Below are positions 1,332 to 49,395 of a stretch of DNA of 64,000 nucleotides, in pieces (within the stretch, counting starts at the first letter, position 1; each line of letters opens with the position of its first letter). Under the pieces are notes generated by a model. That model saw only the letters and a program-made list of their open reading frames with translations, had not been told where the DNA came from and did not search any database. Both the position numbers and the translations under genes were made by a program. The stretch comes from Deltaproteobacteria bacterium (GTDB taxonomy: Bacteria > Desulfobacterota > BSN033 > UBA1163): contig JAGVBT010000069.1 of assembly GCA_020059605.1 (NCBI GenBank), positions 11,715-75,714 of the forward strand, given 5' to 3'.

Positions 1332-1886
1332 ATGCGACAATCCGTCAAGGATTATTTGGGTCGAATTCTTGAACGGTATTCCATCCAGGGACCTGTCTAT
1401 GAGATCGGCTCCTACCGTGTTGAGGGACAGGAGGAATTTGCGGACTTGCGGCGCTTTTTCCCGGGGAAAGCCTATGTCGGTTGCGATATGAGACCCGGGT
1501 TGGGCGTGGACCGTGTCGAAGATGTTCACTGTCTGAAGATCAAGCGCAACAGCATCGGAACTGTCCTCATCTTCGATACCCTTGAACATGTCGAAAATGT
1601 TCACCGAGCGATGGAGGAGGTCTATCGCGTCCTGAAGCCGGGAGGCATGGTCATTCTGTCATCGGTCATGAATTTTCCCATCCATGATTATCCGAGCGAT
1701 TACTGGAGGTTTACCCCGAAGGCATTTGAGCTTCTGCTCCGGCGGTTCGACGCTTACGAGGTTGAGTTTGACGGCGATCCGGCATTTCCGGAGGGAATTT
1801 ACGGTTTCGGGATCAAAGGAGGGGCCGGAGGTCGATTCAGGAATTTACTCCAGCAATTTCTCAAAATCTTTATCCCCTCTCAATAA
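1332..1886 (+). CDS. Class I SAM-dependent methyltransferase (Methyltransf_11-like)
   Basis: VGCDMRPGLGVDRVEDV...TVLIFDTLEHVENVHRAMEEVYRVLKPGGMVILSS matches SAM-MT motifs. Starts 4 nt after the deacetylase stop. Confidence 0.8.
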   Translation: MRQSVKDYLGRILERYSIQGPVYEIGSYRVEGQEEFADLRRFFPGKAYVGCDMRPGLGVDRVEDVHCLKIKRNSIGTVLIFDTLEHVENVHRAMEEVYRVLKPGGMVILSSVMNFPIHDYPSDYWRFTPKAFELLLRRFDAYEVEFDGDPAFPEGIYGFGIKGGAGGRFRNLLQQFLKIFIPSQ

Positions 1887-3587
1887 TTCAAAGTCCCTGT
1901 CTCCCCTTGCTTTCTCTTTATAGATCCGATGGAGCGAGATTCCCTGCTTTAAATATTTCAGGGCCTTTTCTTTCTCATTTTGATTGGCGTAAACACAACT
2001 CATGTTATAGTATGCCGTGGCGAATTGTGGATCTATCTCCGCGGCCCTCTGAAACAGGTCGAGCGCCTTTTCATTCTCTCCCTTTCGAAAATAGCCGCCG
2101 CCCAGGAGATTTAAGACAAATTTGACATTCGTTTTATTCTTGATGTGGGCGCTGAGCTCCAGTGCGATCTCCCCCTCCCGGATCGCGTCATCAATCAGCC
2201 CTCGATTAAAATAAGCCCTTCCCAGGTTATGGCGAACCCTCATCTTTTGGGGGGATTTTTTTGCCGTATCGCTCCACACGGTTAACTCGTCCTTGAAAAC
2301 ATCATTTCTGTGAAGGGTGACATGGGAGTAAAAGATCAGGGGGAGGCAAGAGAGGCCGAGGACCACTCCCAAGCTTAACTTCAGAGAAAGAAATTTTCTA
2401 AAAACGTTGAATAAATAATGCACGGCCAGCCCGAGAAGAAAGGCGTAGGAGAGGAGAGGAAGATAGAGCCTGTACTCCACCATAATATCCCAGATGGGAA
2501 TCACGCTCGATGTGGGGGCCAGAACAACAAAAAACCAGAGGATTGAAAATGAAACCAATCGATTCTTCCTGATCAAAAAGAGGGCAAGAAAAAGAAGAAG
2601 AACAATGAGAGCGGCAGAGATATAGGTTGGATATTCAAACAGGGATCTGGACACCGGAAAGTCATGGTCGATGTTCAGCCACCCCGGCAACGGAAGGAAA
2701 AGGAGCTTCATATATTGGAGGATCACGTTCGATTGGGTGAGCAGGTTCTCCCAGGGGGTCCATCGCCATCCTTCGGCCCTCCCCATAAATTGATACAACA
2801 GTCCCCCCCTCAAGAAGAAAGCGATATAGACCGTCACCCCGAGGAGAAGGGGGAGGTATATTTTTAATCTTTTTATAATGTCCTCTCCTGTTTTACAAAG
2901 AAATAGAAAATCAAAAAGGGCGAGAATAAGGGGCAGGGTGAAACCGATCTCTTTCGAAAAGATCGAACCCAGAAAGGAGAATCCTGTCCCGGTTAAACAG
3001 AGCCACCTTTTTATTCCTTTGTTTAACGCTCCCTTGATAAATAGAAAAAAACCGAGAAGATAGAAAAAGGCGGACATCCCTTCGTTTCTCTGGACAATAT
3101 AGGCGACGGTGTTGACCTGGATCGGGTGGGCAATGAAAATCATGGCGGTAAAAAGGGATAAGAAGACAATTTTTTTGTCCTCGAAGTCCGAGCTTTTGTC
3201 AATGGAATTTTCTTTTTTATGCAATGTTAACCGGAAGAGGTCTCTTGCGATGAAATAGACCAGGAAACCGGACAGCAGGTGAAGGATTAAGTTGACAAGA
3301 TGATAGCCGAAGACGTTGAGCTGATGAACATGGTAATTCAGAGCAAAAGAATAAGTAGGTAATATCCTGAACCAGCTCTGATGGGTCCCTAAGCCCTTGA
3401 GAAAAAGGGGGATGTCCATTGGGTTGCGGGTATAGGGATTTTCAACAATATTGGGCAGGTCGTCGAAAAAGAAGTGGTTGTTCAGTGAATGGATATACAG
3501 ACCAACGGTCAGTACGGATAGGCACACAAGAGGGATCAGATAGGATTTCATTTTCCGGTTCATAGTCAAATGAAACGATTTTTTCAT
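1845..3587 (-). CDS. GT-C-type membrane glycosyltransferase, TMTC/PMT_2-like, with C-terminal TPR repeats
   Basis: 580 aa and about 10 hydrophobic segments. An acidic first-loop motif FFFDDLPNIVENPY follows TM1. The C-terminal 150 aa are TPR-like (NLGRAYFNRGLIDDAIREGEIAL; AEIDPQFATAYYNMSCVYANQNEKEKALKYL). ATGA overlap with the upstream gene at 3584-3587. Confidence 0.65.
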   Translation of the reverse strand: MKKSFHLTMNRKMKSYLIPLVCLSVLTVGLYIHSLNNHFFFDDLPNIVENPYTRNPMDIPLFLKGLGTHQSWFRILPTYSFALNYHVHQLNVFGYHLVNLILHLLSGFLVYFIARDLFRLTLHKKENSIDKSSDFEDKKIVFLSLFTAMIFIAHPIQVNTVAYIVQRNEGMSAFFYLLGFFLFIKGALNKGIKRWLCLTGTGFSFLGSIFSKEIGFTLPLILALFDFLFLCKTGEDIIKRLKIYLPLLLGVTVYIAFFLRGGLLYQFMGRAEGWRWTPWENLLTQSNVILQYMKLLFLPLPGWLNIDHDFPVSRSLFEYPTYISAALIVLLLFLALFLIRKNRLVSFSILWFFVVLAPTSSVIPIWDIMVEYRLYLPLLSYAFLLGLAVHYLFNVFRKFLSLKLSLGVVLGLSCLPLIFYSHVTLHRNDVFKDELTVWSDTAKKSPQKMRVRHNLGRAYFNRGLIDDAIREGEIALELSAHIKNKTNVKFVLNLLGGGYFRKGENEKALDLFQRAAEIDPQFATAYYNMSCVYANQNEKEKALKYLKQGISLHRIYKEKARGDRDFELLRGDKDFEKLLE

Positions 3588-3958
3588 TTGGAGCCGGGTG
3601 GTGGGAGCTCAAGGTCTTCCACCCTTTTTTTCAGCAAGACCAGCTCCTGGGTGAGCCGCTTGTTTTTTTCGGAGAGGTTTGAAACCGCAATCGTCATTCC
3701 AAGGGAAATGATGACCAGAAAGAGAAACGCGGCAAGGAACAGGGCATTGGAGGCGACGAGGAAACCGAAGAATTGGGCGATGGGGGTCAGATAATCAAGC
3801 TCCAGGGAAAGGATCAAAAAGATTCCCCCGGTGATCAGCCAGAGAAGGGAGTATCGCTCTTTCAGGTTTTTGCGGCGGATCAGTTCAATGATGACAAGCA
3901 GGAGGAGGATGGAAGCGATGACGGCCCATAGTTGAATTCGACTCGAAAACATGGTCAT
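3584..3958 (-). CDS. DUF2304-family small membrane protein (usual partner of polyprenyl-phosphate GT2 enzymes)
   Basis: 124 aa with 3-4 TM segments. LLLLVIIELIRRKNLKERYSLLWLITG is typical of DUF2304. ATGA overlaps at both ends (3955-3958 and 3584-3587). Confidence 0.6.
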   Translation of the reverse strand: MTMFSSRIQLWAVIASILLLLVIIELIRRKNLKERYSLLWLITGGIFLILSLELDYLTPIAQFFGFLVASNALFLAAFLFLVIISLGMTIAVSNLSEKNKRLTQELVLLKKRVEDLELPPPGSK

Positions 3959-4647
3959 CTCCTTTTTAACATGCCGATGATCATCGAGAGGGTGACTTTG
4001 AGCATGTAGTAAACGGATCGCAGGAGATTAATCGATGAAATTCCGCCCTGCCGGTCCCTCATCCTGACGGGTATTTCCTTAAAAAGGATCTTATGGTTGT
4101 GAAGAAGCACGAGCGATTCGGCCTCCGGGTAGTCCGAAGGATAGTCCTCTGCCAGGAGAGCGACGGCCTTGCGGTTGTAGGCCCGGAACCCGGACGTGGG
4201 ATCAGTGACCTTCTTCCCGGTCAATGCCGAATTGAGGACCGAAAAGAATCGGATGCCGGCACGCCGCAGGATGGAAGACTGAAAGCCCCCGGCCTCAAGA
4301 TATCGCGATCCGATGATCACATCGGCTTCCCCCTTGAGGATCGGGGCGATCAAATCCGGGATATGTTCGGGATCATGCTGGCCATCGCCGTCGACCTGGA
4401 CCGCGAGGTCGTAGCCGTTTCTCAAGGCATAGAGAAAGCCGGTCTGCATGGTTGCCCCGATCCCCATATTATAAGGGTGCTCCAGCAACAGGGCCTTTTC
4501 CTCCCTGGCGATGGCTCCTGTGAAATCGGTGGACCCATCGTTCACGACCAGAATGTCAGCCCGGGCCAGGTGGCTCCGAATCTCCCGGATGACCGCCGGG
4601 AGGGATTCGGCTTCATTATAGGCCGGAATGATCACAAGGATTTTCAT
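3955..4647 (-). CDS. GT2 glycosyltransferase, dolichyl/polyprenyl-phosphate sugar synthase-like (DPM1/GtrB type)
   Basis: MKILVIIPAYNEAESLPAVI...ILVVNDGSTDFT...VQVDGDGQHDP are GT2 DxD-type blocks. I place the start at ATG 4647 (Met21 of the listed ORF 3955-4707), because the first 20 codons lack homology-like sequence. Confidence 0.85.
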   Translation of the reverse strand: MKILVIIPAYNEAESLPAVIREIRSHLARADILVVNDGSTDFTGAIAREEKALLLEHPYNMGIGATMQTGFLYALRNGYDLAVQVDGDGQHDPEHIPDLIAPILKGEADVIIGSRYLEAGGFQSSILRRAGIRFFSVLNSALTGKKVTDPTSGFRAYNRKAVALLAEDYPSDYPEAESLVLLHNHKILFKEIPVRMRDRQGGISSINLLRSVYYMLKVTLSMIIGMLKRR

Positions 4648-4721
4648 CTGCCTATCCATATCCCGTAGTGCAGGTCCTCGTACGCGCATGCGTTGACGCA
4701 ACCGCATCTACGAACCCTGCT

Positions 4722-4753
4722 ACGGACATAAAGCCCTACACTACAAGTCATAT
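4722..4753. repeat. 32-nt motif ACGGRCATAAAGCCCTACACTACARGTCATAT, copy 1 of 2
   Basis: 30 of 32 nt identical to 54844-54875. Both copies sit in non-coding DNA beside a TA cassette and are followed by T-rich runs on the + strand. Confidence 0.7.
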
Positions 4754-5018
4754 GTCTCGCCTTTTTCAGTTTTTTTGTTTATCTCGTTTGTCTAATTTTG
4801 TATTCCATTGTTCTCTTTAAACCTTTTTCAAAACCTGTTTTTGCCCTAACCCCCAATTTCCTCTCAGGCCGGTTGACGTTACGTTTCCGTCAATGGTTCT
4901 GTGGTTGAAAGCGTTAGGATCGTTAAATTGGTTAAGGCCGGTTTGAAGGTTAGGAAAGAAATTCGCATAAAATGACAAAGGAAACTCTCGGGGTCACCCA
5001 TCCGCTGTCGCTATTCCG

Positions 5019-6175: not shown

Positions 6176-6484
6176 TTACAGATGCCCTGTCAAGAATTGA
6201 GAAGTGAGATCCGAAAAATGCCATGAGATCTCTCGGTTCCACAACTGCCTGCCACAGTCAGGCGTACCCTTCCCTTTTGGAAAATAATTAGCCATTAGGT
6301 AAACCCCCGGCTCTGCCCTGGTTGTACACCACTCTTGAGACTGGGGGTCATGGGCCATCTCTGATCCCGTAATGACATCCACCTGATGCCCCCTTTTCAC
6401 CAGCTCTCTTGAGATACTGGCAATCCAGGCCTCTATCCCACCCTTGGCGGGCCAGAACAGTTCGTAAAACATGGCGATTTTCAT
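6176..6484 (-). pseudogene. Truncated GT4 glycosyltransferase (N-terminal remnant only)
   Basis: MKIAMFYELFWPAKGGIEAWIASISRELVKRGHQVDVITG is a typical GT4 N-terminus. The ORF stops at 102 aa, whereas GT4 enzymes are about 350-420 aa. The native ATGA coupling to the upstream gene is kept at 6481-6484. Confidence 0.6.
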
Positions 6485-8100
6485 CCGGATGTCGTCCTCC
6501 CGCGATGTTCCTCCGTTTCATCCTTCTCAAGCCTCCAGAGGCTCAACTCATCATTTTCGAATATGAGTTCGAGGAACGAAAGGCCGGGCAGCCGGTCGAC
6601 GAAGGATTTCGGGTATCCGCCCGTATGATGAATGTCCTTGTCATCGTAAACCCTCGTCTTTTTTATCAGGATATACCGGATATGATTTTTTTTCAAGGCG
6701 TCCCGGATCATCTCGTCACTTCCCCAAAGGACCTTTCCCAGATCCCAGAAGGTTGTTGTCCAGACGACCCTCCGGTTCGTATATTCCGTCAAATTATACT
6801 CGGGATAAACGATTCTGGCGTCTTCCGGCGTATGCATTTTGATATATCCAATTCCGCGGTCCATCTCCGGTGAGATTTGCCGTTGGGTATAAACATAAAC
6901 AAGCACACTGACAAACTGAATGAGGCAGATGGCCAGAAGGACGGAGACTCCTTTTCGATTTCCCCACGAGGCGAGGGGTTTCGAGGCAACGATACACAAT
7001 AAAGGGGCGATGGGCAGAAGATAACGGATGTCCCCGGAGGGTTTGAAAAAATAGAGGAAGAGCAGGAAATAAAAAAGGATCGGGCCCCAGAGGACGATAT
7101 CCTTTTTCTCAAATCTCCGTCTCATCAAATAGAGGATGAGAAGAAAAGGAAGGCCCAACCCAAAATACTTTACGTTATCTTTGATATTCGTAAAAGAGGA
7201 GTTGTAAACCAAAATGACTTTCCTCCGACTGGAGTCGGGCTGGCCGGCGTCAACCCTCCCCGGATCGGGCTTCCCTACCGCCTTTTCCTTCGGGTCGGGC
7301 CTTATCCCCTCGGCCTTCTTCTGGGCAGATTTTTTTTCTCCGGGAGATAGCGCGATTTTAATATCCCTGGACCTTTCATATCCTCGGTAGACGATATTTC
7401 GCATAATATTTTTAAGGCTTCCGATGTGGCTTTCCGTGCCGAAATGAGTTTCCCTCCAGTAGAGGTCGGGAATGATGATGAGCATGGAGGCCAGGGAGAA
7501 GGCGAGAATCTTTAAAAGCCATCTGTTCCTATAATTTAGATAGAAAATGACCCCGACAAAGGGGAAGAAGAAGAAAAAGCCGTTAAATTTAGTGAAACAC
7601 ATCAAGCCGAAACCAAGACCTGCCCCGAGATGCCTCTTCTTCAGGATCAGGAGAAGTGTGAGGGCGGTGAGCGCAGTGAGCGGCATATCGACATAGAAGA
7701 GAATGGAGAAACTGATGATCATCGGAACCGTGCCGGCCAGGATTAAGGAATAATGGGCTTCCCTTTCTCCATAGAGCTCTTTTCCCAGGAAATAGGCGGC
7801 AACAAGCAAAAGGACAAAATAAAGAGCATGGTAAACCTGGGCGACGGCAAAGGACACCCCCCCGGCAACGGTCCAGAGGAAAGCCAAGCACAGATGCCAC
7901 AGGGGAGGGATCTGATAATGGGTTTGCAGGGTAAAGCCCTTTCCGAAGAACGGGTCATAGGTGACGCGTTCCCCTGTTCGGTAGATATCTCTTGCAAAAC
8001 GGAAGTGATAGATCTCATCGCCCAAATAAAGATCGGACAAAAGACCCACGGCGATGATTCCGATGGAGCAGGAGAGAAGGATCCATAACGTTTTTTTCAT
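6481..8100 (-). CDS. GT-C / PMT_2 (GT39/ArnT-like) multi-pass membrane glycosyltransferase
   Basis: 539 aa and more than 10 hydrophobic segments. First-loop acidic motif LGDEIYHFRFARDIY. A charged low-complexity loop lies mid-protein. Clear paralog of 9176-10678. Confidence 0.65.
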   Translation of the reverse strand: MKKTLWILLSCSIGIIAVGLLSDLYLGDEIYHFRFARDIYRTGERVTYDPFFGKGFTLQTHYQIPPLWHLCLAFLWTVAGGVSFAVAQVYHALYFVLLLVAAYFLGKELYGEREAHYSLILAGTVPMIISFSILFYVDMPLTALTALTLLLILKKRHLGAGLGFGLMCFTKFNGFFFFFPFVGVIFYLNYRNRWLLKILAFSLASMLIIIPDLYWRETHFGTESHIGSLKNIMRNIVYRGYERSRDIKIALSPGEKKSAQKKAEGIRPDPKEKAVGKPDPGRVDAGQPDSSRRKVILVYNSSFTNIKDNVKYFGLGLPFLLILYLMRRRFEKKDIVLWGPILFYFLLFLYFFKPSGDIRYLLPIAPLLCIVASKPLASWGNRKGVSVLLAICLIQFVSVLVYVYTQRQISPEMDRGIGYIKMHTPEDARIVYPEYNLTEYTNRRVVWTTTFWDLGKVLWGSDEMIRDALKKNHIRYILIKKTRVYDDKDIHHTGGYPKSFVDRLPGLSFLELIFENDELSLWRLEKDETEEHRGRTTSG

Positions 8101-8153: not shown

Positions 8154-9209
8154 CTATTCTTTAAACGTTAAAGCCTTTGTAGAAATCCCAAACCGGTTTA
8201 ATAGCAAATAAGCTTTTTTACGGTCCAGTCCCCTGCGCCGTCCCAACTCGGATCGTTTCTTCAGGATGAGGGGGAGGCGCCTGAGAACCGAGAAATAGAC
8301 CTTTATCATAATTTTTAAGAGCTGAGATTTCGAGTATTCCCGGGTAAAGCTCCCGGCCGCCCCTCTCCCCGTGAATACGAGATAAATATTGAAGAGGTAC
8401 CTCCACAGGGTATAGGCCTGGCCGGCAAAGAGCAATGGGACTGGGAAATTTTTAAGGGCCACCCAGATTCGGTTTCTCTCAACTAAAAAGGCTTTAAACG
8501 GCGAGAAGGTTCCCGTACTGGAGGAATGGAGGTGGTAGACCACGGCTTGAGGGTTGTAAATGCATTTCCATCCGGTCAACCGGGCCCTCCAGCCCAGGTC
8601 CGTATCCTCCGCATAGGCAAAAAAATCTTCATCATAAAGGCCGATCTCCTCTATCATCTCCCGGCGGAAGAGCCCGGCGCAACCGCTTGCGCAGAAGACC
8701 TCGGTTTCTTCATCGTACTGTTCCGCTTGCTCCATTCTTCCCCTGCCGATGGAAAGTCCGTCCGGATAGACGACGATCCCCGCCGCATCGATCAGATTGT
8801 TCTGATGATCGAGGAGAATTTTGGGAGCGCCGGCTCCATACCTCCGGTCTCTTTCGAGCGACTGCATCAAAAACTCAAGGCATTTTAAATCCAAACGGGT
8901 GTCGTTATTCAAGATCATGATGTATCGTCCCTTGGAGGCTTTGATCCCCAGATTGTTTCCCCCTCCGAAACCGAGGTTTTTTTCGTTGAGGATCAACCGG
9001 ACCAGGGGAAAACGATTTCGGATCAAATCAGGGGAACCATCTTCCGAAGCATTGTCCACGACGATGACTTCGAGAGGTTGGTAGGTTTGGCGGAGGATCG
9101 ATTCCAGGCATGACTCGATGACCGGGAGACCATTCCAGTTGAGGACGACCACGCTGATCAGAGGCACAAAATCGTTCAAACTCCCCTCTCTTCCTCCCGG
9201 AGTTTCCAC
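8154..9209 (-). CDS. GT2 family glycosyltransferase
   Basis: ISVVVLNWNGLPVIESCLESILRQTYQPLEVIVVDNASEDGS...ILNNDT. The listed start at 9209 is GTG. A TTG at 9179 forms a TTGA overlap with the upstream stop and is an alternative start. Confidence 0.85.
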   Translation of the reverse strand: METPGGREGSLNDFVPLISVVVLNWNGLPVIESCLESILRQTYQPLEVIVVDNASEDGSPDLIRNRFPLVRLILNEKNLGFGGGNNLGIKASKGRYIMILNNDTRLDLKCLEFLMQSLERDRRYGAGAPKILLDHQNNLIDAAGIVVYPDGLSIGRGRMEQAEQYDEETEVFCASGCAGLFRREMIEEIGLYDEDFFAYAEDTDLGWRARLTGWKCIYNPQAVVYHLHSSSTGTFSPFKAFLVERNRIWVALKNFPVPLLFAGQAYTLWRYLFNIYLVFTGRGAAGSFTREYSKSQLLKIMIKVYFSVLRRLPLILKKRSELGRRRGLDRKKAYLLLNRFGISTKALTFKE

Positions 9210-10678
9210 AAAGCCAGCTCCCCGTTTTTAAAGACCGGCTCCAGGAAGGGAAAATGATTCAATCGATTAACAAAGGAGGCGGGGTAACCCCCGGTGTGGC
9301 GAATGGTTCGATCATCATAGATCCGAGTCTTTTTAATCAAAATAAAATAAACCCTGTTTTTTTTCAATGCGGTTTTAATCGATTCATCATCCGCCCAGAG
9401 AAGTCTTCGGATATCCCAGAAGAGGGTGTCCCAAACAGCCTTCTGCCTGGTGAATTCCGTGAGATTTAATTCGATATAGAGAACGGAGGCCTTGTCGGGG
9501 AGGGTCCTGTTGATGTAATCCATTCCCTCCCGGATCCCGGGAGGGACCTTCCGTTCAGCGGCCGTGTAAGTGATGGTGGCGAGAAACTGAAGGAGGCAAA
9601 GGATAAGGATGATTGTTCTATAGGAAGGCCTCCTGAAGGAGGAGATCATTTTTGATGCGATGACGCAAAGGAGAGGGGTCAGGGACAACAGATACCGGAT
9701 GTCTCCCCGGATTCCATAGGCAAAAAGGAAACACAGAAAATAGAAGAGGAGAGGAATGCCGATCAAGAGATCCTTCCTTTCAACCCTTCTCCGCAGGAGG
9801 AGAAGCAAGAGGAGGCCGAGGAGGGGAACTCCGAAATATTTGGCGTGGTCCTTTATTTTTGAAAAAGAGGAGTTGTAGTATGTCCGAATGGGTGGAGAAG
9901 GGGCGGATCTCTCCGGCTGGAGCCATTCACGGGTCGTCTCGGAAAGCTGGGATCCCCGGTGAATGATAAACTTGAGATATTTTTTCGGACTTCCAAGAGC
10001 GGCTTCCATGCCTAAATGTTTTTCCCTCCAGTAGAAATCAGGTCCGATCAGGAGGAGCGCTCCGACTGAAAAAAGAACTACCTTTTGAAGCCACATCTCA
10101 CGCTTCCGGAGAAGGAAGATCATGACCAGGAGAGGGGGCCCGAAAAAAAGCCCGTGCAGTTTGGTCAGGCACGTCAGGCCGAATCCAAGCCCTGCCAGGA
10201 ATTCCCGCTTCTTAACAAGTAGAAGGAGTGTCAGGGTCGAAAAAGCGGCCAGGGGCACATCCACATAAAAGAGAATTCCAAAAGATACGACCATCGGGAC
10301 GCTGCCGACCAAGACCATCGCATAACGTCCTTCCCTCTCTCCGTACAGGTCTTTCCCGAGAAAGTAGGTGGCCGCCAACAGGAGGGCATAAAAGAGGGTA
10401 TGATAGATCTGGGCCACCCCGAAAGAAATCCCCCCGGTCAGCTTCCAGAGGAAGGCCAATCCGAGATGCCAAAGGGGAGGGGCATAGTAATAGTTCCGAT
10501 GAGAGAAATTCCTCCCATAAACAGGGTCGAAGGGGACCCTCTCCCCTGCTTCAAAGATGTCCCTGGCAAAACGATAGTGATGGATCTCGTCACCAAGATA
10601 GAGCTCGGACAGGAGACCTGCCGTCAGGATTCCAACCACAAGGGAAAGGGGAAGGAGCCAAAAGAGGCGAAACTGCAT
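9176..10678 (-). CDS. GT-C / PMT_2-like membrane glycosyltransferase (paralog of 6481-8100)
   Basis: Collinear with its paralog (LGDEIHHYRFARDIF; C-terminal ...ILIKKTRIYDD...HTGGYP...). I place the start at ATG 10678 (MQFRLFWLL...). The listed 10768 start is TTG and runs into a promoter-like repeat. Confidence 0.65.
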   Translation of the reverse strand: MQFRLFWLLPLSLVVGILTAGLLSELYLGDEIHHYRFARDIFEAGERVPFDPVYGRNFSHRNYYYAPPLWHLGLAFLWKLTGGISFGVAQIYHTLFYALLLAATYFLGKDLYGEREGRYAMVLVGSVPMVVSFGILFYVDVPLAAFSTLTLLLLVKKREFLAGLGFGLTCLTKLHGLFFGPPLLVMIFLLRKREMWLQKVVLFSVGALLLIGPDFYWREKHLGMEAALGSPKKYLKFIIHRGSQLSETTREWLQPERSAPSPPIRTYYNSSFSKIKDHAKYFGVPLLGLLLLLLLRRRVERKDLLIGIPLLFYFLCFLFAYGIRGDIRYLLSLTPLLCVIASKMISSFRRPSYRTIILILCLLQFLATITYTAAERKVPPGIREGMDYINRTLPDKASVLYIELNLTEFTRQKAVWDTLFWDIRRLLWADDESIKTALKKNRVYFILIKKTRIYDDRTIRHTGGYPASFVNRLNHFPFLEPVFKNGELALWKLREEERGV

Positions 10679-34062: not shown

Positions 34063-34237
34063 TAAGTAAGACCTCCGTAACAAAACCGTTCAGCAAACCG
34101 ACTGGAATGGACTCAATAAACCTCAATAATTCGCTGCTTAGCAGGTTTGGCATAGGACCTTACTAATATTATCGAATTAAAATAATATTTATTACGACTT
34201 ACTATTTCTTATTCACAGAATGTTTAAAGTAACCTCT

Positions 34238-36268: not shown

Positions 36269-39200
36269 TCAGGTTTTGATTTCCCGATACCGATGGGGTT
36301 GCCAGGGGAATCCCCATTTTTCTTCAAAACGTCTTTTATTCTCATTAAAAATCTTCCTGTATTCTCCGGTCTCCTTCAGTTTATTGAAGGAGACCTCCCC
36401 AAAGTGATGGATAAAGACGTCCTCCGCGCACACCACACGGTACCTCTTAAGGCGGATGCGATGGGCAAAATCGTCATCCTCAAACATTCCGATCTGAAAT
36501 CGCTCGTCCAATAATCCGACTTCGTCGATTAATTTCCGCCTCATTGCAACACAATACATCGCCAGTACTTGGATGTCAAATCTCTTGGGAAGAAAGTGTT
36601 TTCTAATAAAATATTCTGAAAACCCTTCGATCTCCTTCAGCTCTTTATAGGGAACATCGATCTTTGATTCATTTCCTGAGAAATTGGTTACCGGTCCAAC
36701 TAAACCGATGGAATCGTCCTGTAAATGCCTAAGCAGTTTTGTTATCCACCCTCTTGTCAAAATGGTATCGTTGTTTAAAAAGATGATGTATTCCCCCGAA
36801 GACGCTAAGATTCCCTGATTATTCGCCTTTGGAAATCCTTCGTTTGTCGAATTGAATATGATCTGTACTTGAGGATGGCGAGAGGCCAGCTCATGCAGGT
36901 ACTCTTGTGTCCCGTCCTCTGAGTGGTTATCGACCAGGATGATCTCGTAATTTGGGTACTGAGACTTCAAAAAAATACTTTCAATACACATTTTAGTGTA
37001 ATACAGGTTATTAAAGGTCACAATGATAATGCTGACTTTTGGATAAATATTTCTAATCTCTGAAGTTAACGTAATATATCTAGCCTCCCAGGTATTCTTT
37101 TTGGCGAGCTCGATCCTTTCTGTTATTAGATTCTTATTATTTTCATGCAAGGCACTCTCTATATTTTTAAGAAAATCATTTTTGTCTTTAGCCAGATAAA
37201 GATATTTGGCATAAGGCAATAATTCGGGGATCTCGACAGAGACTACCTTCTTCCCCGAACTCATAAATTCGTAGAATTTAACAGGATTGGTGGCTTTGGT
37301 TAGTTTATTCAGCTTAAAGGGGATAATGCAAACATCAAACCAGTAAAGATATTTTGGCAGTTGGTCATAAGGTTTCTCTCCAAGAAAGTGAACATTGGAG
37401 ATTTTCTCTAATCTCGCAATATCAGATCCAAAGGTATGACCGATAAAAACAAAATTCCAGTCTTTTTTGCTGATAGCCAGATACTCGACAAGTTCATTGT
37501 CAAACCAGTCCGAGATGGCACCGTAATAGCCTATGATGGGCTTTTTCATTTCTTTTAAAAGGTCATTTGGAGGAAGATGGCTGAAGTGGTTAAAATCCGA
37601 GGCGTTGGGCAGAAAAAGGCATCGTTCGTTATGGTGTCTCATTTTTTCATAAAGAGATTGGGCAGTGGTGATGAGAAGGTCGCAACCCTTCGCGAGCAGC
37701 GTTTCCCGAGAGAGCATCGCTTCATCGTTTGTCGAAAACCCGCTATGTTCATCTATACAGTCATAAATAATTTTCCAACCCAATTCCTCTTTGATTCTCT
37801 GGGCGAGGGGTTGCCAAAAGGGAAGCTGAACGATTGTGATTGCTTCGACAATTCCTTTCTCTTCCCTCAGAGAATTAAGAGAAGCGGCCATCTTTTCCAG
37901 GCTTACCTCATCGATAGGGTCTTGATAGATGCTCAGCCGGGGATTTGCCTCAATGGCCACATCAAAAATACCTTCCTTAATCTCCCGGCATTGGAATTCC
38001 CCTCCCTGATTATCCAAGAATTTTGGATTGATATAAAAAACCCTTGCCCCATTTTGTGCAAATTGGGAGAGGATCTGCTGGGGTCTCTGGTATCTGAAGA
38101 ACCAGTCGATGATCGGCAGGCAGATGACATCGTATTGCCGGGCTATTTTTGAGTTATGATCTTGACTGGCAGAAAGAGAGGGAACCTCTTTATTTCCGGA
38201 CCCTCCTTGCTCTATTTGACTTATGGCGCTTCTATTTTCTTCTCCCTCCTTCTCTTTATTACTGTGAGAGGGTCCTATTTTGATAAACGGAAATACGGTG
38301 TTCATTAGCTTCACGGAGAAATTCCCTAATCTCCAGGTTCTCGTGGAAAGCATTGCGTTGAGCCTGGTGTCGAGGTTGACAATTTGGTTTTTTAGGTAGA
38401 ATACGGAAAGATCCCTTTTGGCCACCTCATCCGTATAATGCTGCTCCTGCTCCTTGTGTTTGGACAGAAGCGAGTGGATTTCGTCGTTTCTATCAGCGAT
38501 CTCTTTTGTATAATGCTGTTCCTGCTCCTTATACTGCTCAATAAGATCTTGAATCTTATCCTCTATCTTAAGGAGCTCCAGGTCCTTTTGTTGTATCTGT
38601 TTTTGTAGATTTTCCAAAATCCCCACTTGTTCAGAGAGTTTCTGAATCTGCTCGTCTCTCTGCTCTAACTCCCTATGGAGATGATCAATGGTGTGGTCCT
38701 TGAGCTTTTGAAAAATGGAATTGGATATATCAATCAGATGGGAACCTTGCAGGAACGTCTCGATCAATTGGTTTGTATCCGAAGCGATGGCGATAAAGTA
38801 TTTGGAAGGTTTGTTCTCTCTTGAAGTGAATTCGAACCCACTCTTTGACTTTCTGAGAACAGATTCTTCAAAGTAAACCTCTTTGCGGCTAAAGAGAGGT
38901 GATATATTCGAGCCAGAGAATACGTTTTGCCCGAAGAACCAGACAAATTCAAAATATCCCTTTAGGAAGCCTCTCAAATCATTAAAGTAAAACTCTTTGA
39001 TATGGAAAGGATTCTTGAAGTTAATCTCATCGGAGTAAACCTTTTTGTTCGGAGTGGATAAGACGAGGATACCATCGTTCTTCAATAGCCTCTTAATTTC
39101 TTTAAATAAGGCCCCATGGTTTTCAATATGCTCTATGGCCTCGAAACAAACGATGACGTCAAATATTCTCTCTCCCTCGATTGGAACCTCGAGGATAGAT

Positions 39201-39457
39201 CCCTGAATGAATTCGATATTTTCTTTGATATATTTGCTGCTGGCATGGTTAATGATATCTGGGGCTATGTCTACCCCTACCACATGGGAGGCATTCTCCG
39301 ATAAAAGCAAGCTCCCATAACCCTCGCCACAGGCCAAATCCAAAACTTTCTTCCCCGTCACAAACCGCTTACAGAAGGCATACCGATGCAAATGTTCGTA
39401 ATTCATCATGGGGTCATCATCCCAGGGCAAGAACCGCTCTCCCGTATCTTTCAGCAT
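36269..39457 (-). CDS. Multidomain protein: SAM methyltransferase - coiled coil - GT-B (TuaH-like) - GT2
   Basis: aa 1-190: [15 protein letters not shown]...VGVDI...FEAIEHIEN...[13 protein letters not shown]. aa ~248-372: heptad-rich, with the duplicated KEQEQHYT block. aa ~440-790: GT-B blocks. aa ~806-1062: [21 protein letters not shown]...[11 protein letters not shown]...FLNNDT...FEDDDF. Confidence 0.8.
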
Positions 39458-43353: not shown

Positions 43354-45072
43354 ATGGTCGGGGATATTTTCGCTCCGAAACGAATCTGCGGACACGAGTT
43401 CTTCCTCCCTGTTATGGTCTTTTCGCTTTTTGTTCTGATCAAGTATCTAACTCTATTCAGCATTAATTTTGGACCTATCCTTTTTTTCGACGAACTCCTC
43501 TATAAGGAGCTGGCCCTCAAATTAGTTACAGAGCCGTTAAAAAACGGATATCCTTCAACTCATTTCCCGTTTGTCTATCCGTTGTTTCTTTCCCCCGCTT
43601 TTCTCTTCTCAGATTTTTACTCTGTGATGAAGATATTAAATATCTTGTATTCTTCGGCCATCGTATTTCCAGTCTGGATGATTGCCCGCCTTTTCAAACT
43701 CGGTCACACTGAAAGTGTTATAGTCATCGTGCTGGCCAGCCTCCTACCGTATCAGGTTGCACTTTCTCCAATGATCATGAGCGAGCTGTTATTTTTTCCT
43801 CTTTTGTATTTTGCCATTTACTTAACCCTGCAGATGCCAGCCCGGCGTCGTATCGCCTTTGCTTATCTCACAGGAATATTCATCGGCCTCCTGGTTGAAA
43901 CTCGTTATATCGCGATTCCCCTTGTGCCATCGTTTCTTTTTGTCTTTTCGCTGAAATTATTAGAGAAAAGCCACGGGGAAGCCAGGCATGATAAATTCAA
44001 ACAGCTCTTTTCCCTTCTCTTGGGTTTTGCTACGGTTTATCTGCCAAGATTAGGCGTGGGTTTGTTGTTAGGACATAAGATATTTTCCGTCGTCGGTTTC
44101 GCAACTCATAAAGTCATGGTGGAAACCGATCTAAACCGAATCCTGTTGTTTCACACATTTTATGTCTCATACATCATCTTGTCCTTTGCGCCTTACCTTT
44201 TCTGGTTGTTATTCTTTGGATCTAAATATCTTGCTCCTCCATGGACTTCTCCTGAGAAGCGTTTGTTTATTTTGATTATGGCCATCACAGCAACTCTTGT
44301 ATCCGTTGCATCCTGGCATTCGGCTAAAGCTTATTATAACACTCCCGATCTAAAGTATATGATTGGTCGATATGTTTTCTTCTCACTTCCTCTCGTCATT
44401 GTTTTTACCTTTGCAGGCCTGAAAAACTCTTGCGTGGTCAAGAGAAAAGGCACTGCCCTTTCTATCGGATCTTTATGGTTATCTGCTCTTACTTCAACGC
44501 TGCTGATCATGTTCTCGTATAAAATCCTTTTTGAAAACTATTTAATAGACCTCCCGGGTTACTTTGTAATGAGCCATATTTCCCCGGACGGAACAGCGTG
44601 GAGGCTGTTAAAATATCCTTATATGTATACCGTCTTGGGGGTGATTGTGCTTTATGCGCTGTATGTCACTGTAAAATGGCCCCCCAAAGCTTTGCCCTGG
44701 CTTGTATTTATCGTAACGGTATCTCTCTGCTTATGGGGGAACAAAGTTCTCTATAAACAGACGGTAGAATACAAGCGACGGGCGATTCACGCCTACTACC
44801 TGGCAGAAGGAGCAAAGGCATTTTTTAAACGAACAGGTATCGTTCCCGACATCTATTCGATAAAATTTCCCCACAGCTTTATTGAGCACTCTTTCAAGTT
44901 CTGGGAGGCTCCGATCAACAAAGTGATATTTCTTGGGGAAGAAACACAGTTTACATCGCCCGGGGTTTTACTGGATACAAAACAAGCCGCACATTATCCG
45001 CTGGTCCATAGCTACCAAACGGGTGGGAAACAATATTTTATCCAGCACATCATTGAGCGGGAGAACCGGTAA
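43354..45072 (+). CDS. GT-C / PMT_2-like membrane glycosyltransferase
   Basis: 572 aa and about 13 hydrophobic segments. First-loop PILFFDELLYKELALKL. Confidence 0.55.
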   Translation: MVGDIFAPKRICGHEFFLPVMVFSLFVLIKYLTLFSINFGPILFFDELLYKELALKLVTEPLKNGYPSTHFPFVYPLFLSPAFLFSDFYSVMKILNILYSSAIVFPVWMIARLFKLGHTESVIVIVLASLLPYQVALSPMIMSELLFFPLLYFAIYLTLQMPARRRIAFAYLTGIFIGLLVETRYIAIPLVPSFLFVFSLKLLEKSHGEARHDKFKQLFSLLLGFATVYLPRLGVGLLLGHKIFSVVGFATHKVMVETDLNRILLFHTFYVSYIILSFAPYLFWLLFFGSKYLAPPWTSPEKRLFILIMAITATLVSVASWHSAKAYYNTPDLKYMIGRYVFFSLPLVIVFTFAGLKNSCVVKRKGTALSIGSLWLSALTSTLLIMFSYKILFENYLIDLPGYFVMSHISPDGTAWRLLKYPYMYTVLGVIVLYALYVTVKWPPKALPWLVFIVTVSLCLWGNKVLYKQTVEYKRRAIHAYYLAEGAKAFFKRTGIVPDIYSIKFPHSFIEHSFKFWEAPINKVIFLGEETQFTSPGVLLDTKQAAHYPLVHSYQTGGKQYFIQHIIERENR

Positions 45073-45079
45073 GCAAAAT

Positions 45080-46411: not shown

Positions 46412-48069
46412 AATTTAATTTAAGTGACATCTTTTTACAACTCAACAGATTCAGCACATTTCTTCTCCCCCGGCTGCTAACCCAAATATGTCGCGATCCT
46501 CACTCAAGAGCCTATGGTTGTTGCGATAGAAACTGGTGGCATTATAAGATGAGAGACTTCCCTTCGATCATTTTGCAGCAGGGAGGTTACAGTGTTTACT
46601 GTGGTTCTGCACTTGGTGCTTACCGCGATAGAACTTCCGAGCTGAGGGAATTGGCTCACGCGAGTTGTCTCTTCTGGCGGAAAAGAGCGGTCAAACATGG
46701 AGCTTTTGAAGAATACTATCCTTGGGAGCAGGGATATCCTCCCCTTGCTTTTTCTACGTTGGCAGTTGCTAAAAGCGTTGCTTCCAATATCGTAGAACTT
46801 GAGGAAGTTTATGATGGCCTCGCTGTGGCCGCAAAACAACTGCTCAGCAGATTTGAAGCAAAGGCAGGAAACCAGCAGTGCGCCGGCACCGCCGCATTAT
46901 GTTGGCTTCACAAGCTCATTCCTGATCTTGTGCCAAGCGACCAATTGGAACTGGTGATCCAAAAAATACTTGGGTGCCAGCATGAAGATGGCTGGTATAT
47001 GGAGTATGGCGCCTCCGATTTGGGTTATCTCTCGGTTGCCATGGACTGTCTTTGGGATGCTTTTGACGCAACGCAAGATCGCCGTTTTATCGCATCTGCA
47101 GCCAAAGCCCTTAGCTTTATCTCCCTCTTTACTGCTTTCCCCAGCCGGGGGGCGGGGATGCACAACTCAAGAAACACGGATTACATTCTTCCCTATGGAA
47201 TTTCCAGGTTTCTCAAGGACCCTGAATCAGCCGAAGCGGCAGCTAATATTTTAAGGCGAGTTTATGATCGTCTTGAAGATCCGGCTCATTTTCTTTATGC
47301 CATCGATGATCGCTATTACTGCCACTATACTGCACACTCGTTGTGCAGGGCCCTGCCTTTGATTGGCTCGGCGAAAAATCGTGAATTCAAAGCTAATGAT
47401 GAAGGGTTGGAGGACAAGTTTATTTCAAGCACCGGGCATTTTTTTAAACACAATACCCCTGGTGGAAGCAAGGTGTTAGTGAGCGGAAAGAAGGGTGGTA
47501 TTTTTTCAATCTACACCTCCGGTCAATCTCTTTCAGACTACGGTTGGTTAGTTGTGAAGGGGAAAAAGTCCTGGGTCAGTCATTGGTGGATGGATCATTG
47601 GCGAATTGAACATGGCCAGAATCGCATTAAAATAAGCGGATTCTTGACACCTCATCAAACACAATTGAGCAACCCCCAAAAGCACATGATCTTGCGATTG
47701 TTCAGTTTATGTTTGGGCAAAGGTATCATCAACTTCCTAAAAGAAAAACTCATCTTTAAGAAGGGGCGTCGGTCAGGCCCGGTTTTTGAGCGTGAAATCA
47801 ATTTCATGCCGGATGCTTTATTGGTGATCGATCGCATTGAAATCCAGAAGGGCGGCACACTTCATCGCGCGCCCCGAGTTTCGCAACGCTATGTAGCAAG
47901 CGCCAACTCTTTTCATCCAGAAGATTTAAGTTTGTCTAATGCCTGTATTCATCTCAATGAGAATAAATATCAGGAAGGAGATTTACTTATAATTGAAACG
48001 AAATATGAGTTTAGAGCACGGGGCAACGGAAAAAATGAAACTGGTTATTCAGATTCCTTGTTACAATGA
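46408..48069 (+). CDS. Conserved-looking hypothetical protein, 553 aa, function unknown
   Basis: ATGA overlap with the upstream gene at 46408-46411. No TM segments or signal peptide. Cys/Trp-rich N-terminus (YGCCDRNWWHYKMRDFPS). No family recognised by eye. Confidence 0.5.
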   Translation: MKFNLSDIFLQLNRFSTFLLPRLLTQICRDPHSRAYGCCDRNWWHYKMRDFPSIILQQGGYSVYCGSALGAYRDRTSELRELAHASCLFWRKRAVKHGAFEEYYPWEQGYPPLAFSTLAVAKSVASNIVELEEVYDGLAVAAKQLLSRFEAKAGNQQCAGTAALCWLHKLIPDLVPSDQLELVIQKILGCQHEDGWYMEYGASDLGYLSVAMDCLWDAFDATQDRRFIASAAKALSFISLFTAFPSRGAGMHNSRNTDYILPYGISRFLKDPESAEAAANILRRVYDRLEDPAHFLYAIDDRYYCHYTAHSLCRALPLIGSAKNREFKANDEGLEDKFISSTGHFFKHNTPGGSKVLVSGKKGGIFSIYTSGQSLSDYGWLVVKGKKSWVSHWWMDHWRIEHGQNRIKISGFLTPHQTQLSNPQKHMILRLFSLCLGKGIINFLKEKLIFKKGRRSGPVFEREINFMPDALLVIDRIEIQKGGTLHRAPRVSQRYVASANSFHPEDLSLSNACIHLNENKYQEGDLLIIETKYEFRARGNGKNETGYSDSLLQ

Positions 48070-49024
48070 GGAAAAAACTCTTCCACAAACCATTGTTGAT
48101 CTGCCTAAAAATATTGAGGGAATCGACGAGATCGAATACCTGGTGATCGATGATGGAAGTACAGACCATACTGCTCAAGTAGCGGAAGAACTGGGGGTCC
48201 ATCATATTATACGCTTGGGAACTCATCGAGGTCTCGCTACTGCCTTTAAGAAGGGAATCGAGTCCGCCCTCGAGCGTGGCGCTGATATTGTAGTCAACAC
48301 GGATGGAGACAACCAGTATCGAGGGGAGGATATATCTCTTCTCGTCTCTCCCATACTTAAAGGGAAAGCTGACATGGTCGTGGGATCGAGACCCATCGTG
48401 GATCATCCTGAGTTCAGCCCTGTAAAAAAAACGTTGCAGCGACTCGGAAGCATTATACTGAGACAGCTTTCTAAAACTCGTGTCAGAGATGCCGGGTCAG
48501 GTTTTCGGGCGTTCTCGCGAGAAACGTGCCTGCGATTTTTCATTCATTCTCAGTTCTCTTACTGCCTGGAAACACTTATCCAAGCGGGAAACTCCTCTAT
48601 TCGCGTAACTTCAGCCGATATCCGCGTTAACCCAAAAACAAGGGAATCAAGGCTCTTTCAGAACGTTTTTCAGTATGTCTGGAAGTCAGGAACAACCATG
48701 CTTTCCATGTTCGTGTTGTATCGGCCCGGCAGGTTCTTTCTTGCGATTGCTTCTCCTTTCATTTTGTTTTCACTTATTTTAGGTGTCAGGTTTATCTACT
48801 GGATATATCTCTCTAATGTCGTTGATCCGGGAAGAACCTATTTGCCATCATTAATCCTGATGTCCGTCTGCATGATCATCGGCGTCGTTCTGTTGGCGCT
48901 CGGCATTATCGGAGAATTGCTGAAAGCACAACGCAAAATATCTGAAGAGAACTTATATCACATGCGAATGAAAAGAAATTTTAAAGAAGAACAAAAGAAA
49001 AGTATTCGCCCCGAAGGCCGATGA
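48035..49024 (+). CDS. GT2 polyprenyl-phosphate sugar synthase (GtrB/DPM1-like) with C-terminal TM helices
   Basis: MKLVIQIPCYNEEKTLPQTI...YLVIDDGSTDHT...VNTDGDNQY, plus two C-terminal TM segments. Start at Met15 of the listed ORF; ATG 48005 is also possible. Confidence 0.85.
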   Translation: MKLVIQIPCYNEEKTLPQTIVDLPKNIEGIDEIEYLVIDDGSTDHTAQVAEELGVHHIIRLGTHRGLATAFKKGIESALERGADIVVNTDGDNQYRGEDISLLVSPILKGKADMVVGSRPIVDHPEFSPVKKTLQRLGSIILRQLSKTRVRDAGSGFRAFSRETCLRFFIHSQFSYCLETLIQAGNSSIRVTSADIRVNPKTRESRLFQNVFQYVWKSGTTMLSMFVLYRPGRFFLAIASPFILFSLILGVRFIYWIYLSNVVDPGRTYLPSLILMSVCMIIGVVLLALGIIGELLKAQRKISEENLYHMRMKRNFKEEQKKSIRPEGR

Positions 49025-49395
49025 GAATGAGTGGTTTGGTATCCTTTCTTGGCGCAGGCATCCCTGGGTTCCTAATCGCCCTACCGCTCAACATGTTCCT
49101 GGTTGAGACGATTCGTCTTGGAATAGAAATCTCTTATCTATTCGTTTTGTTCATTCAGGTCTCAATTAATTTTTGTATGGTCAGAACCTTCCTTTTCGAT
49201 ATAAAAGACCGTTCCAACATTCTGCCACAATATATCCAATTCTTGCTGGGAATGTTCCTATTTCGTTTTTTTGATTGGTTAATATATATCTTTTTGGTAA
49301 AGGCGACAAACGTGCATTACCTCCTGGTCCAGGCTGGAAACATCATTCTTTTCTCTTTTTTAAAGTATAAATTCACGAAAAAAGTAATGGAATAA
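49021..49395 (+). CDS. GtrA-family small membrane protein
   Basis: 124 aa and 4 TM segments. Overlaps the stop of the GtrB-like gene, the classic gtrA/gtrB-type pairing. Confidence 0.7.
   Translation: MRMSGLVSFLGAGIPGFLIALPLNMFLVETIRLGIEISYLFVLFIQVSINFCMVRTFLFDIKDRSNILPQYIQFLLGMFLFRFFDWLIYIFLVKATNVHYLLVQAGNIILFSFLKYKFTKKVME

Follow-up and report, generated by a model that had tools for sequence, protein, structure and literature searches.

In the GtrA/GtrB/GtrC systems of Shigella and Salmonella O antigens, as in ORF12/14/15 of Citrobacter youngae (PMC11127046), a synthase makes an undecaprenyl-phosphate (Und-P) monosaccharide, a membrane protein is the candidate flippase, and a GT-C glycosyltransferase adds the sugar to a pre-made glycan in the periplasm. 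GacI/GacJ/GacL of Streptococcus pyogenes and PpgS/Rv3632/Rv3779 of Mycobacterium tuberculosis combine a GT2 synthase with an adjacent stimulating DUF2304 protein, and a GT-C then acts onto a cell-wall polysaccharide: GacJ forms a complex with GacI and stimulates it, and Rv3632 does likewise for PpgS (bioRxiv 10.1101/180810). Here we describe a stretch of 64,000 nucleotides from a Deltaproteobacteria bacterium (assembly GCA_020059605.1, contig JAGVBT010000069.1, positions 11,715 to 75,714; hereafter “the window”), in which genes for seven GT-C-type membrane proteins and three polyprenyl-phosphate sugar synthases lie between positions 1845 and 49395. We think it probable that this is a cell-envelope glycan island of mosaic build, where three three-component periplasmic glycosylation modules of the GtrABC/GacIJL type are set among ordinary cytoplasmic glycan-assembly genes.

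The core of this reading, i.e. that several lipid-phosphate-sugar donors are made inside the membrane and used outside it by many GT-Cs, had been predicted by a first-pass annotation of the window, and is supported by homology, topology and gene linkage. One of the three modules (module D) has the canonical GtrABC content: a GT2 gene, an overlapping GtrA gene and a GT-C nearby. Disparities with GtrABC nevertheless appear. There are three modules in 47 kb, with up to three GT-Cs per synthase, and in two of them a DUF2304 or UPF0104 protein stands in the place of GtrA. The GT-Cs are moreover of the PMT_2 type and have no BLAST-level kinship to a characterised GtrC.

Seven GT-C membrane proteins of five families

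The window contains 92 open reading frames (ORFs) of at least 100 amino acids (aa), and every plausible gene was scanned against Pfam. The seven large multi-pass proteins that the first-pass annotation had classed as GT-C, together with their acidic motifs, were all found at the following positions (TM, transmembrane; CBM, carbohydrate-binding module; the gathering score of PMT_2, PF13231, is 26.1 bits):

1845..3587, minus strand: GTC1, predicted 11-helix GT-C membrane domain and C-terminal TPR domain (aa ~450-580) with TPR matches in Pfam; motif FFFDD
6481..8100, minus strand: GTC2, PMT_2 41.5 bits; motif LGDEIYH after TM1; predicted C-terminal periplasmic domain
9176..10678, minus strand: GTC3, paralogue of GTC2, PMT_2 43.9 bits (scored as ORF 9176-10768); motif LGDEIHH after TM1
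28401..30260, minus strand: GTC4, PMT_2 37.5 bits, PMT (PF02366) 30.4 bits; motif AFDSTMYH after helix 4; three extra N-terminal helices
30310..32904, minus strand: GTC5, PMT_2 30.3 bits; motif QYDALNYH after helix 7; six extra N-terminal helices; predicted periplasmic middle domain; C-terminal CBM_4_9-like module (~30310-30760)
34238..35836, minus strand: GTC6, PMT_2 38.1 bits; motif YADEIYV after TM1
43354..45072, plus strand: GTC7, divergent, PMT_2 27.4 bits; motif FFDELLY after TM1

Six of these proteins (GTC2 to GTC7) exceed the PMT_2 gathering score, and GTC1 joins them through profile and structure comparison (below); on sequence, and for GTC1 also on a structure model, we assign all seven as GT-C glycosyltransferases, as first proposed. 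Among the other Pfam families suggested at the outset, PF02366 is passed by GTC4 only and DUF1736 is found nowhere. None of the seven has a Pfam match to MIR or PMT_4TMC, which distinguishes them from the PMT/GT39 enzymes. By BLAST they form five families: GTC2 and GTC3 are 48.6% identical, GTC4 and GTC5 26% identical over 606 aa (E 4e-43), and GTC1, GTC6 and GTC7 are singletons. The ORF of GTC3 runs to a TTG at 10768, and an ATG at 10678 matches its paralogue GTC2.

Profile comparisons link the families. With hhalign, GTC2 and GTC6 matched the GTC5 family at 98.7% (E 4e-16) and 95.2% (E 2.5e-8) probability respectively. As a single sequence GTC7 aligned poorly (13.8% against the GTC5-family profile and 0.6% against the GTC1-family profile), and this was resolved by a profile of its own family, which matched the GTC5 family at 96.2% probability (E 2e-9). 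That family is large and diffuse: exhaustive HMMER searching gave 712 representative relatives, none above ~33% identity, of which a word-indexed search finds almost none. PMT_2 is matched by 24 of 32 relatives of GTC7.

GTC1 (probable start at 3563, 572 aa) is the case where Pfam does not help with the membrane part: its matches are TPR models only, in the C-terminal 130 residues, and the membrane part has no match even at E<=10. Aligned with hhalign, the GTC1 and GTC5 families nevertheless match at 93.7% probability (E 1.8e-7, 316 columns). Structural comparison to solved GT-Cs, proposed with ArnT, PglB, PMT and EmbC in mind, covers GTC1 only. With the full-length protein, both the Foldseek model and the PDB sequence search were swamped by TPR proteins, and the query was remodelled with the TPR domain removed. 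The AlphaFold model of the membrane part alone has a pLDDT of 85 and a pTM of 0.89, and its top 13 PDB matches in Foldseek are all GT-C enzymes (Pmt4, PglB, human STT3, ArnT, Pmt1/2, EmbB and AftA). The scores are modest, the best being that of Pmt4 (E 2.3e-3, TM-score 0.49). HMMER searches of PDB chains with GTC2, GTC7 and the GTC5-family profile gave no meaningful match, these families being too distant from solved GT-Cs. For the C-terminal domains of GTC2, GTC4, GTC5, GTC6 and GTC7, and for ORFs without family, Pfam at E<=10 gave no usable match.

The acidic motif was described as lying just after the first TM helix. This holds for GTC1, GTC2, GTC3, GTC6 and GTC7, where it stands 4-10 residues past the first hydrophobic helix; in GTC4 and GTC5 it follows helix 4 and helix 7 instead because both proteins have N-terminal extensions. 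In the first five a Lys/Arg-rich tail precedes helix 1 and thus places the motif loop outside the membrane, and in GTC4 and GTC5 the charge bias of short loops likewise puts it outside. By the positive-inside rule the loop is therefore predicted outside in all seven (7 to 15 hydropathy peaks per protein), as judged by a hydropathy and charge heuristic rather than a dedicated predictor.

The Asp of the motif is strongly conserved. It is invariant in the families of GTC1 (D34, with D35 nearly so, in 33 aligned members down to 30% identity), GTC5 (D222, 25 homologues) and GTC7 (D46, together with E47 and R339, 32 aligned members); for GTC2 and GTC3 it was compared between the two paralogues only. 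The acidic Asp is also mutually aligned across the families of GTC1, GTC4, GTC5 and GTC7: D34 of GTC1, D133 of GTC4 and D46 of GTC7 all fall on D222 of GTC5. In the GTC1/GTC5 alignment a second segment, EYRLYLP, falls on YLRYFLP.

These data bear on whether some of the seven are really Wzy polymerases, O-antigen ligases, transporters or dead paralogues. No Wzy was found despite the presence of Wzx and an initiating transferase, the PMT_2 pass of GTC7 is marginal, and the membrane part of GTC1 escapes Pfam. We nevertheless consider this very unlikely. In Pfam none of the seven matched a Wzy_C, O-antigen polymerase, O-antigen ligase or transporter model, GTC1 and GTC7 were confirmed by family profiles (GTC1 also by its structure model), and the putative catalytic Asp and a downstream Arg are invariant in their families. 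A hydropathy scan of the window revealed no further unexplained polytopic ORF.

Donor synthases, membrane partners and module layout

The seven genes are distributed over three modules, which together with their synthases and small membrane proteins are as follows:

10768-1845, minus strand: module A, with GTC3, a soluble GT2, GTC2, a GT4 fragment and HepT/MNT toxin-antitoxin pair, synthase a, DUF2304 and GTC1
35836-27418, minus strand: module C, with GTC6, synthase b, GTC5, GTC4 and UPF0104
43354-49395, plus strand: module D, with GTC7, an FrhB-like protein, a family-less protein, synthase c and GtrA
3955..4707 (likely start 4647), minus strand: synthase a, a GT2 with no TM helix, PpgS/GacI-like
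33151..34083, minus strand: synthase b, a GT2 with two C-terminal TM helices, AglJ/DPMS-like
47993..49024 (likely start 48035), plus strand: synthase c, a GT2 with two C-terminal TM helices, GtrB/ArnC/DPMS-like
3584..3958, minus strand: DUF2304 protein (PF10066, 79 bits), three predicted TM helices, putative GacJ/Rv3632-type partner of synthase a
27418..28404, minus strand: UPF0104/LPG_synthase_TM (PplT) protein (PF03706, 155.8 bits; TIGR00374 “flippase-like domain”, 86.8 bits)
49021..49395, plus strand: small membrane protein of the GtrA family (PF04138, 26.7 bits for a cut-off of 26.1)
8154..9209, minus strand: soluble GT2 between GTC3 and GTC2, no TM helix, best NCBIfam matches PgaC, MftF and EpsD; position conserved in the relative L001

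Each module thus has exactly one synthase and one membrane partner, with one to three GT-Cs. Several of the genes overlap by 4 nt (3955/3958, 3584/3587, 28401/28404 and 49021/49024). All three membrane families announced by the first-pass annotation are present, with two reservations: the GtrA match is borderline, and the UPF0104 gene, which overlaps the end of GTC4, is ~5 kb from synthase b, on the same strand and in the same gene string.

That the three GT2 proteins are polyprenyl-phosphate sugar synthases agrees with their best NCBIfam and PDB matches. For synthase a the best NCBIfam match is PpgS (98.6 bits), followed by AglJ, a Dol-P-hexose transferase and ArnC, and the PDB matches are DPMS (5mlz) and ArnC. 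Synthase b reaches 226.5 bits on the AglJ model (E 4e-67), below the equivalog cut-off of 325, and its sole PDB match is DPMS 5mlz. Synthase c matches AglJ, PpgS, PgfS and ArnC best, and DPMS and ArnC in the PDB. The DPMS of Pyrococcus is thus the first PDB match of all three, with ArnC also matched by two. Two control GT2s (8154-9209 and 25301-26242) differ in that their best matches are PgaC, MftF and EpsD, not the synthase type. The first of these was considered as a fourth polyprenyl-phosphate synthase and rejected on account of these matches and of its lack of a TM helix.

Synthase a and its neighbour resemble GacI/GacJ and PpgS/Rv3632 in that the GT2 and DUF2304 genes overlap, the GT2 is TM-less and its best match is PpgS. 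They differ by what accompanies them: the downstream GT-C (GTC1) carries TPR repeats and TMTC-like motifs, two further GT-Cs belong to the operon, and the host is probably diderm. Synthase b, with 226 bits on the AglJ model, recalls archaeal AglJ and AglD. UPF0104 is the flippase domain of MprF and is naturally fused to the GT2 of archaeal AglD (PMC5898192; 10.1101/2022.03.11.483950), a fusion that parallels the linkage of GT2 and UPF0104 in module C. Unlike the archaeal systems the window is bacterial, and it has PMT_2-type GT-Cs instead of AglB or AglS.

The kinship to ArnC and MprF raises the possibility that the locus modifies lipid A, the lipopolysaccharide core or membrane lipids, some GT-Cs being ArnT-like and UPF0104 flipping lipids as it does in MprF. 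Synthases a and c both count ArnC among their best matches, and several GT-C homologues are named “ArnT-like glycosyltransferase” by JGI. We give this reading a very small chance: the window has no ArnA, ArnB or ArnD-type genes, PDB searches gave no significant sequence match between any GT-C and ArnT, the presence of a CBM and a TPR domain suggests that the acceptor is a polymer or a protein, and seven enzymes far exceed the needs of lipid A.

Under the island reading, each synthase would move one sugar from a housekeeping nucleotide-diphosphate sugar (NDP-sugar) to undecaprenyl phosphate at the cytoplasmic face, with DUF2304 activating synthase a as GacJ and Rv3632 do for theirs. The absence of NDP-sugar biosynthesis genes from about 49 kb, as first reported, is borne out by Pfam, where no such domain was found in the ORFs of at least 100 aa over 1-49.4 kb. 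The lipid-linked monosaccharide would then be flipped, GtrA and UPF0104/PplT being the candidate flippases by analogy with described systems. In the periplasm, the one to three GT-Cs of each module would use the flipped donor, the conserved Asp of the first outside loop acting as catalytic base, and would add side-chain or terminal sugars to glycans built on undecaprenyl pyrophosphate (Und-PP) and exported via Wzx or Wzm/Wzt.

The first-pass annotation had advised comparing the locus with related genomes, and this supports its modular nature. In the relative L001 (85% identical) module A is kept, without the toxin-antitoxin insertion, and Wzx lies directly upstream of GTC3. Homologues of GTC5 occur in two cassettes: one (GT2-GtrA-GT-C) is beside GT4 genes and an epimerase, and the other (UPF0104-GT2-GtrA-GT-C-GT-C, then three GT4 genes, Wzm and Wzt) is in an O-antigen-like locus. 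The three modules are rearranged between relatives.

Base composition adds to this picture. The G+C content is 33-40% over 26000-36000, which includes GTC4, GTC5, GTC6, synthase b and UPF0104, as against 45-53% elsewhere, and this suggests horizontal acquisition of the block. An assembly chimera was considered as the source of the drop and rejected, for a contig from an independent run (L084, 19.6 kb) reproduces window 23117-42688, the junctions of the block included, with 99.76% identity.

Several further features of the modules were observed. In module A, a HepT/MNT toxin-antitoxin pair (5019-5913) and a truncated N-terminal fragment of a GT4 (6176-6484) are inserted between GTC2 and synthase a; L001 is without the insertion of window 4650-6530, the positions ~6530 and ~4650 being joined directly. 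Other toxin-antitoxin-like genes are found at module borders (22492-22857, 52376-52768 and 53090-53563; two DUF5615 PIN-like and one HepT-like_2). Such scattered genes fit a mosaic, mobile-looking island. In module D, an FrhB/FdhB-like flavoprotein (492 aa) and a 582-aa protein lie between GTC7 and synthase c (44933-48069, plus strand); the latter has no family match in Pfam or NCBIfam.

Candidate acceptors of GTC5 and GTC1

The first-pass annotation had noted a lectin-like module in one GT-C and TPR repeats in another, and had taken them as a hint at protein or polymer acceptors. The hint holds, since GTC5 carries a CBM and GTC1 a real TPR domain, the latter confirmed by Pfam. Conservation of the last ~145 residues of GTC5 extends to five homologues. 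Taken alone, the C-terminal sequence of the window's own GTC5 has no CBM match (Pfam E<=10) and its PDB search is also empty; the CBM appears through the orthologues. Four of six orthologous modules match Pfam CBM_4_9 (best E 1.2e-7), and the profile of all six matches the carbohydrate-binding module of an S-layer-associated endoglucanase (2zez, E 4.7e-4), which we take to be a CBM16. The lectin-like module thus corresponds to a CBM_4_9-type module and indicates a glycan acceptor for GTC5, which may dock on its glycan via this CBM. GT-Cs with a CBM have been described, namely C. youngae ORF12, where the CBM is also C-terminal (PMC11127046) and which is a direct precedent for GTC5, as well as EmbC and AftD.

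For GTC1 the comparison is with the eukaryotic TMTC1-4 O-mannosyltransferases (GT105), whose architecture and motifs are described in PMC7801869. In the model, GTC1 has an 11-helix GT-C domain in which DD, HPIQ..QRNE (HPxQ..QRxE), SKE and EYRLY are predicted in outside loops, and a C-terminal TPR domain predicted on the non-cytoplasmic, periplasmic side, both as in TMTC1-4. The DD of the first outside loop resembles motif M1. Three further segments resemble published TMTC motifs: THQSWFRILP..SFALN for M2 (SHKSYRPL..SFRLN), SKEIGFT for M4 (KE(T/Q)xxT) and EYRLY for M7 (ERxxY), the likeness being judged by eye against the published motifs and not by sequence alignment (PMC7801869). Beside the DD, R66, K204/E205/T209 and E363/R365 are conserved in the GTC1 family. 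GTC1 differs from TMTC1-4 by the lack of DUF1736 (PF08409), the TMTC loop between TM7 and TM8: it is absent from full GTC1 (E<=0.01) and from the membrane part (E<=10), and PF08409 is listed for no homologue.

A second point of comparison is TfpW of Pseudomonas aeruginosa, a GT-C that likewise carries TPR repeats and whose substrate is pilin; it shows that a bacterial enzyme of this build can glycosylate a protein. In contrast, no pilin or other target gene adjoins GTC1, and the likeness is judged from architecture and motifs. Because it is TMTC-like and TfpW-like, GTC1 is the only one of the seven that gives real grounds for a protein acceptor: it may glycosylate a periplasmic or surface protein instead of a glycan. 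By analogy with these enzymes, we regard a role of GTC1 alone as protein O-glycosyltransferase as a tentative possibility, on balance doubtful.

It is a different matter to extend this role to the whole locus, i.e. to suppose that most of the GT-Cs are PMT/TMTC-like and transfer single sugars from Und-P-sugar to Ser/Thr residues of S-layer proteins, pilins or lipoproteins. The matches to the PMT_2 and PMT models, the TMTC architecture and M1, M2, M4 and M7-like motifs of GTC1 (PMC7801869), and the precedent of pilin glycosylation by the TPR-bearing TfpW speak for it. PMT_2, however, covers ArnT-like and glycan-modifying enzymes too, and neither MIR nor DUF1736 is matched. The module of GTC5 is predicted to bind carbohydrate, not protein, no candidate pilin or S-layer target gene adjoins any GT-C, and the surroundings of the genes, in the window as in relatives, are polysaccharide loci. 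This general protein O-glycosylation thus appears quite improbable.

The GTC1 family is widespread. Among the candidates scored, GTC1 had more than 1000 homologues at E<=1e-5; in their sources they bear names such as “TPR repeat protein” or “protein O-mannosyl-transferase”, and those named come mostly from Thermodesulfobacteriota, Omnitrophota and Nitrospirota. A scan of a one-genome-per-species collection gave at least 583 matching stretches, of which 80 loci were fetched. A synthase-like GT2 lies within 5 kb in 14 of these 80 loci, and a GT2+DUF2304 pair in 3 (one Thermodesulfobacteriota and two Bacteroidota); beyond the window the pair was seen in L001, L040, L067 and L076. Two or more copies of the family within 22 kb occur in 17 of the 77 loci with a full-length membrane-domain match, and also in L001. 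The extreme case is the Omnitrophota contig JAJDCA010000018.1 (L010, L015, L028), where ~11 tandem TM+TPR GT-C paralogues with FxFDD motifs occupy ~40 kb (~18.3-58.8 kb), and locus L042 has six copies. The large arrays have no adjacent synthase, except for one GT2 at the far end of L015. These tandem arrays in other genomes indicate that a high local density of GT-Cs is not unique to the window.

Glycan assembly genes around the modules and the place of the locus

The genes between and around the modules, which the island reading takes as the cytoplasmic pathway, include the following:

19604-21028, plus strand: polyprenyl glycosylphosphotransferase (initiating), TIGR03025 404 bits
21052-22353, minus strand: Wzx flippase, Polysacc_synt match
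36269..39457, minus strand: 1062-aa fusion of an S-adenosylmethionine (SAM) methyltransferase (aa 30-143), a GT4-like domain (634-774) and a GT2 (806-1024), by Pfam
55103..56646, minus strand: Wzm/Wzt-type ABC exporter, ABC2_membrane and ABC_tran, 6 kb past the end of the locus

Beside these there are a B12-radical SAM protein, a CapK-like ligase, a radical SAM protein, a pyruvyl transferase and two GT4 genes, as well as an Alg13/Alg14-like pair, more GT4 and GT2 genes and two sulfatase-like proteins. The permease of the exporter (depositor name “transport permease protein”) matches chains 6m96/6oih at E 3e-20, which we take to be the Wzm of Aquifex aeolicus, and its ATPase has only 251 aa and is thus without the glycan-binding C-terminal domain. 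The 1062-aa fusion has a Gln/Glu/Lys-rich, coiled-coil-looking stretch (~aa 250-370) and heads a gene string with GTC6, GTC5 and GTC4, in the same order in the independent contig L084.

Some of these genes are unusual. The block 10806-22353 has three radical-SAM enzymes (one B12-dependent, one SPASM) and the CapK-like ligase, which hints at unusual sugar modifications. The 1062-aa fusion recalls the enzymes that polymerise and terminate chains in O-antigen pathways dependent on an ABC transporter. At 39451-43109 (minus strand) are two paralogous proteins of the sulfatase/alkaline-phosphatase superfamily with no TM helix by hydropathy; the second also includes a fused PAPS-reductase/CysD-like ATP pyrophosphatase domain (aa 517-686), a combination that is unusual in a glycan locus and may relate to sulfate or phosphate substituents. 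Farther on (56932-62537, plus strand), CusB/CusA-type RND efflux genes and two NosL-like copper-chaperone genes are seemingly unrelated to the glycan island.

The first-pass annotation had found the locus closer to mycobacterial arabinan/mannan assembly or protein O-mannosylation than to an ordinary O-antigen or exopolysaccharide locus. This part of its interpretation found no support in that form: a conventional cytoplasmic set is present, Wzm/Wzt lies 6 kb on, the cassettes of relatives are in O-antigen-like loci, and Emb/Aft, decaprenyl-phosphate-arabinose (DPA) genes and MIR are missing. In Pfam no match to Emb/Aft arabinosyltransferase domains or to DPPRS/DprE donor genes was obtained in the window, EmbB and AftA appearing only as fold-level matches of GTC1. 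The mycobacterial GT-C network (EmbA/B/C, AftA-D, PimE, MptA/B) is similar in that many GT-Cs, some of them with CBMs, use few polyprenyl-phosphate donors outside the membrane; it differs in that no sequence family is shared, that DPA and polyprenyl-phosphate-mannose (PPM) pathway genes are absent here, and that the present modules look like mobile add-on cassettes. The analogy captures the logic of many GT-Cs on few lipid donors, yet family membership does not support it.

A periplasmic assembly line, in which the seven GT-Cs act in sequence and build most of a branched polymer outside from three lipid-linked donors, as Emb, Aft and PimE/MptA do, would account for the ratio of seven GT-Cs (five families, two paralogue pairs) to three donors. 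It would also agree with the lack of a Wzy polymerase in the window, with the missing NDP-sugar genes and with the CBM of GTC5, which has counterparts in EmbC and AftD. We nevertheless judge it unlikely. The full set of cytoplasmic glycosyltransferases, the initiating transferase, Wzx and the nearby Wzm/Wzt speak against it, relatives have only one or two of these GT-Cs, in O-antigen-like loci, and neither Emb/Aft matches nor DPPRS or DprE-type donor genes were found. The different strands of the modules, their differing G+C content and their rearrangement between relatives moreover speak for independent add-on cassettes. A more ambitious version seems to us equally unlikely, namely that seven GT-Cs from five families use three donors to assemble a branched structure outside the membrane and that the GTC1 family is the bacterial TMTC counterpart, a periplasmic protein O-glycosyltransferase fed by a PpgS/GacI-like synthase with its DUF2304 activator.

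Several points weigh against the island reading that we favour. Neither a Wzy polymerase nor a chain-length regulator nor an outer-membrane exporter was found in the 64-kb window, which leaves the conventional pathway with gaps here and makes it conceivable that some GT-Cs build glycan themselves. Seven GT-Cs for three donors exceed the usual need of simple side-chain decoration. The GtrA assignment clears its cut-off by little, and DUF2304 is an activator, not a flippase, which leaves module A without an identified flippase unless Wzx serves (Wzx adjoins module A in L001). The predicted topology of the motif loops depends on the hydropathy and charge rule, and the evidence for invariance of the motif Asp comes from the families of GTC1, GTC5 and GTC7. 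Lastly, what is said here of sugars and acceptors is a prediction from sequence.

The locus is an unusually dense example of an already known mechanism and involves several uncharacterised GT-C families; its density of GT-Cs and synthases and the TMTC-like TPR enzyme GTC1 are what make it notable. It offers a compact test case for whether UPF0104/PplT proteins flip polyprenyl-phosphate sugars, for whether DUF2304 partners activate TM-less synthases beyond Gram-positive bacteria and mycobacteria, and for the targets of the very abundant bacterial TM+TPR (TMTC-like) GT-Cs. Current models are not overturned; rather, the three-component paradigm is extended to an uncultivated lineage and to several GT-C families. 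If the island reading is true, surface glycans in this organism would be diversified mainly by cassettes that act outside the membrane, and each of these could be acquired, dropped or copied while the cytoplasmic pathway stays as it is. Module C with its low G+C content, module A with its toxin-antitoxin insertion, and the rearrangement seen on comparison with a close relative all fit such a picture.

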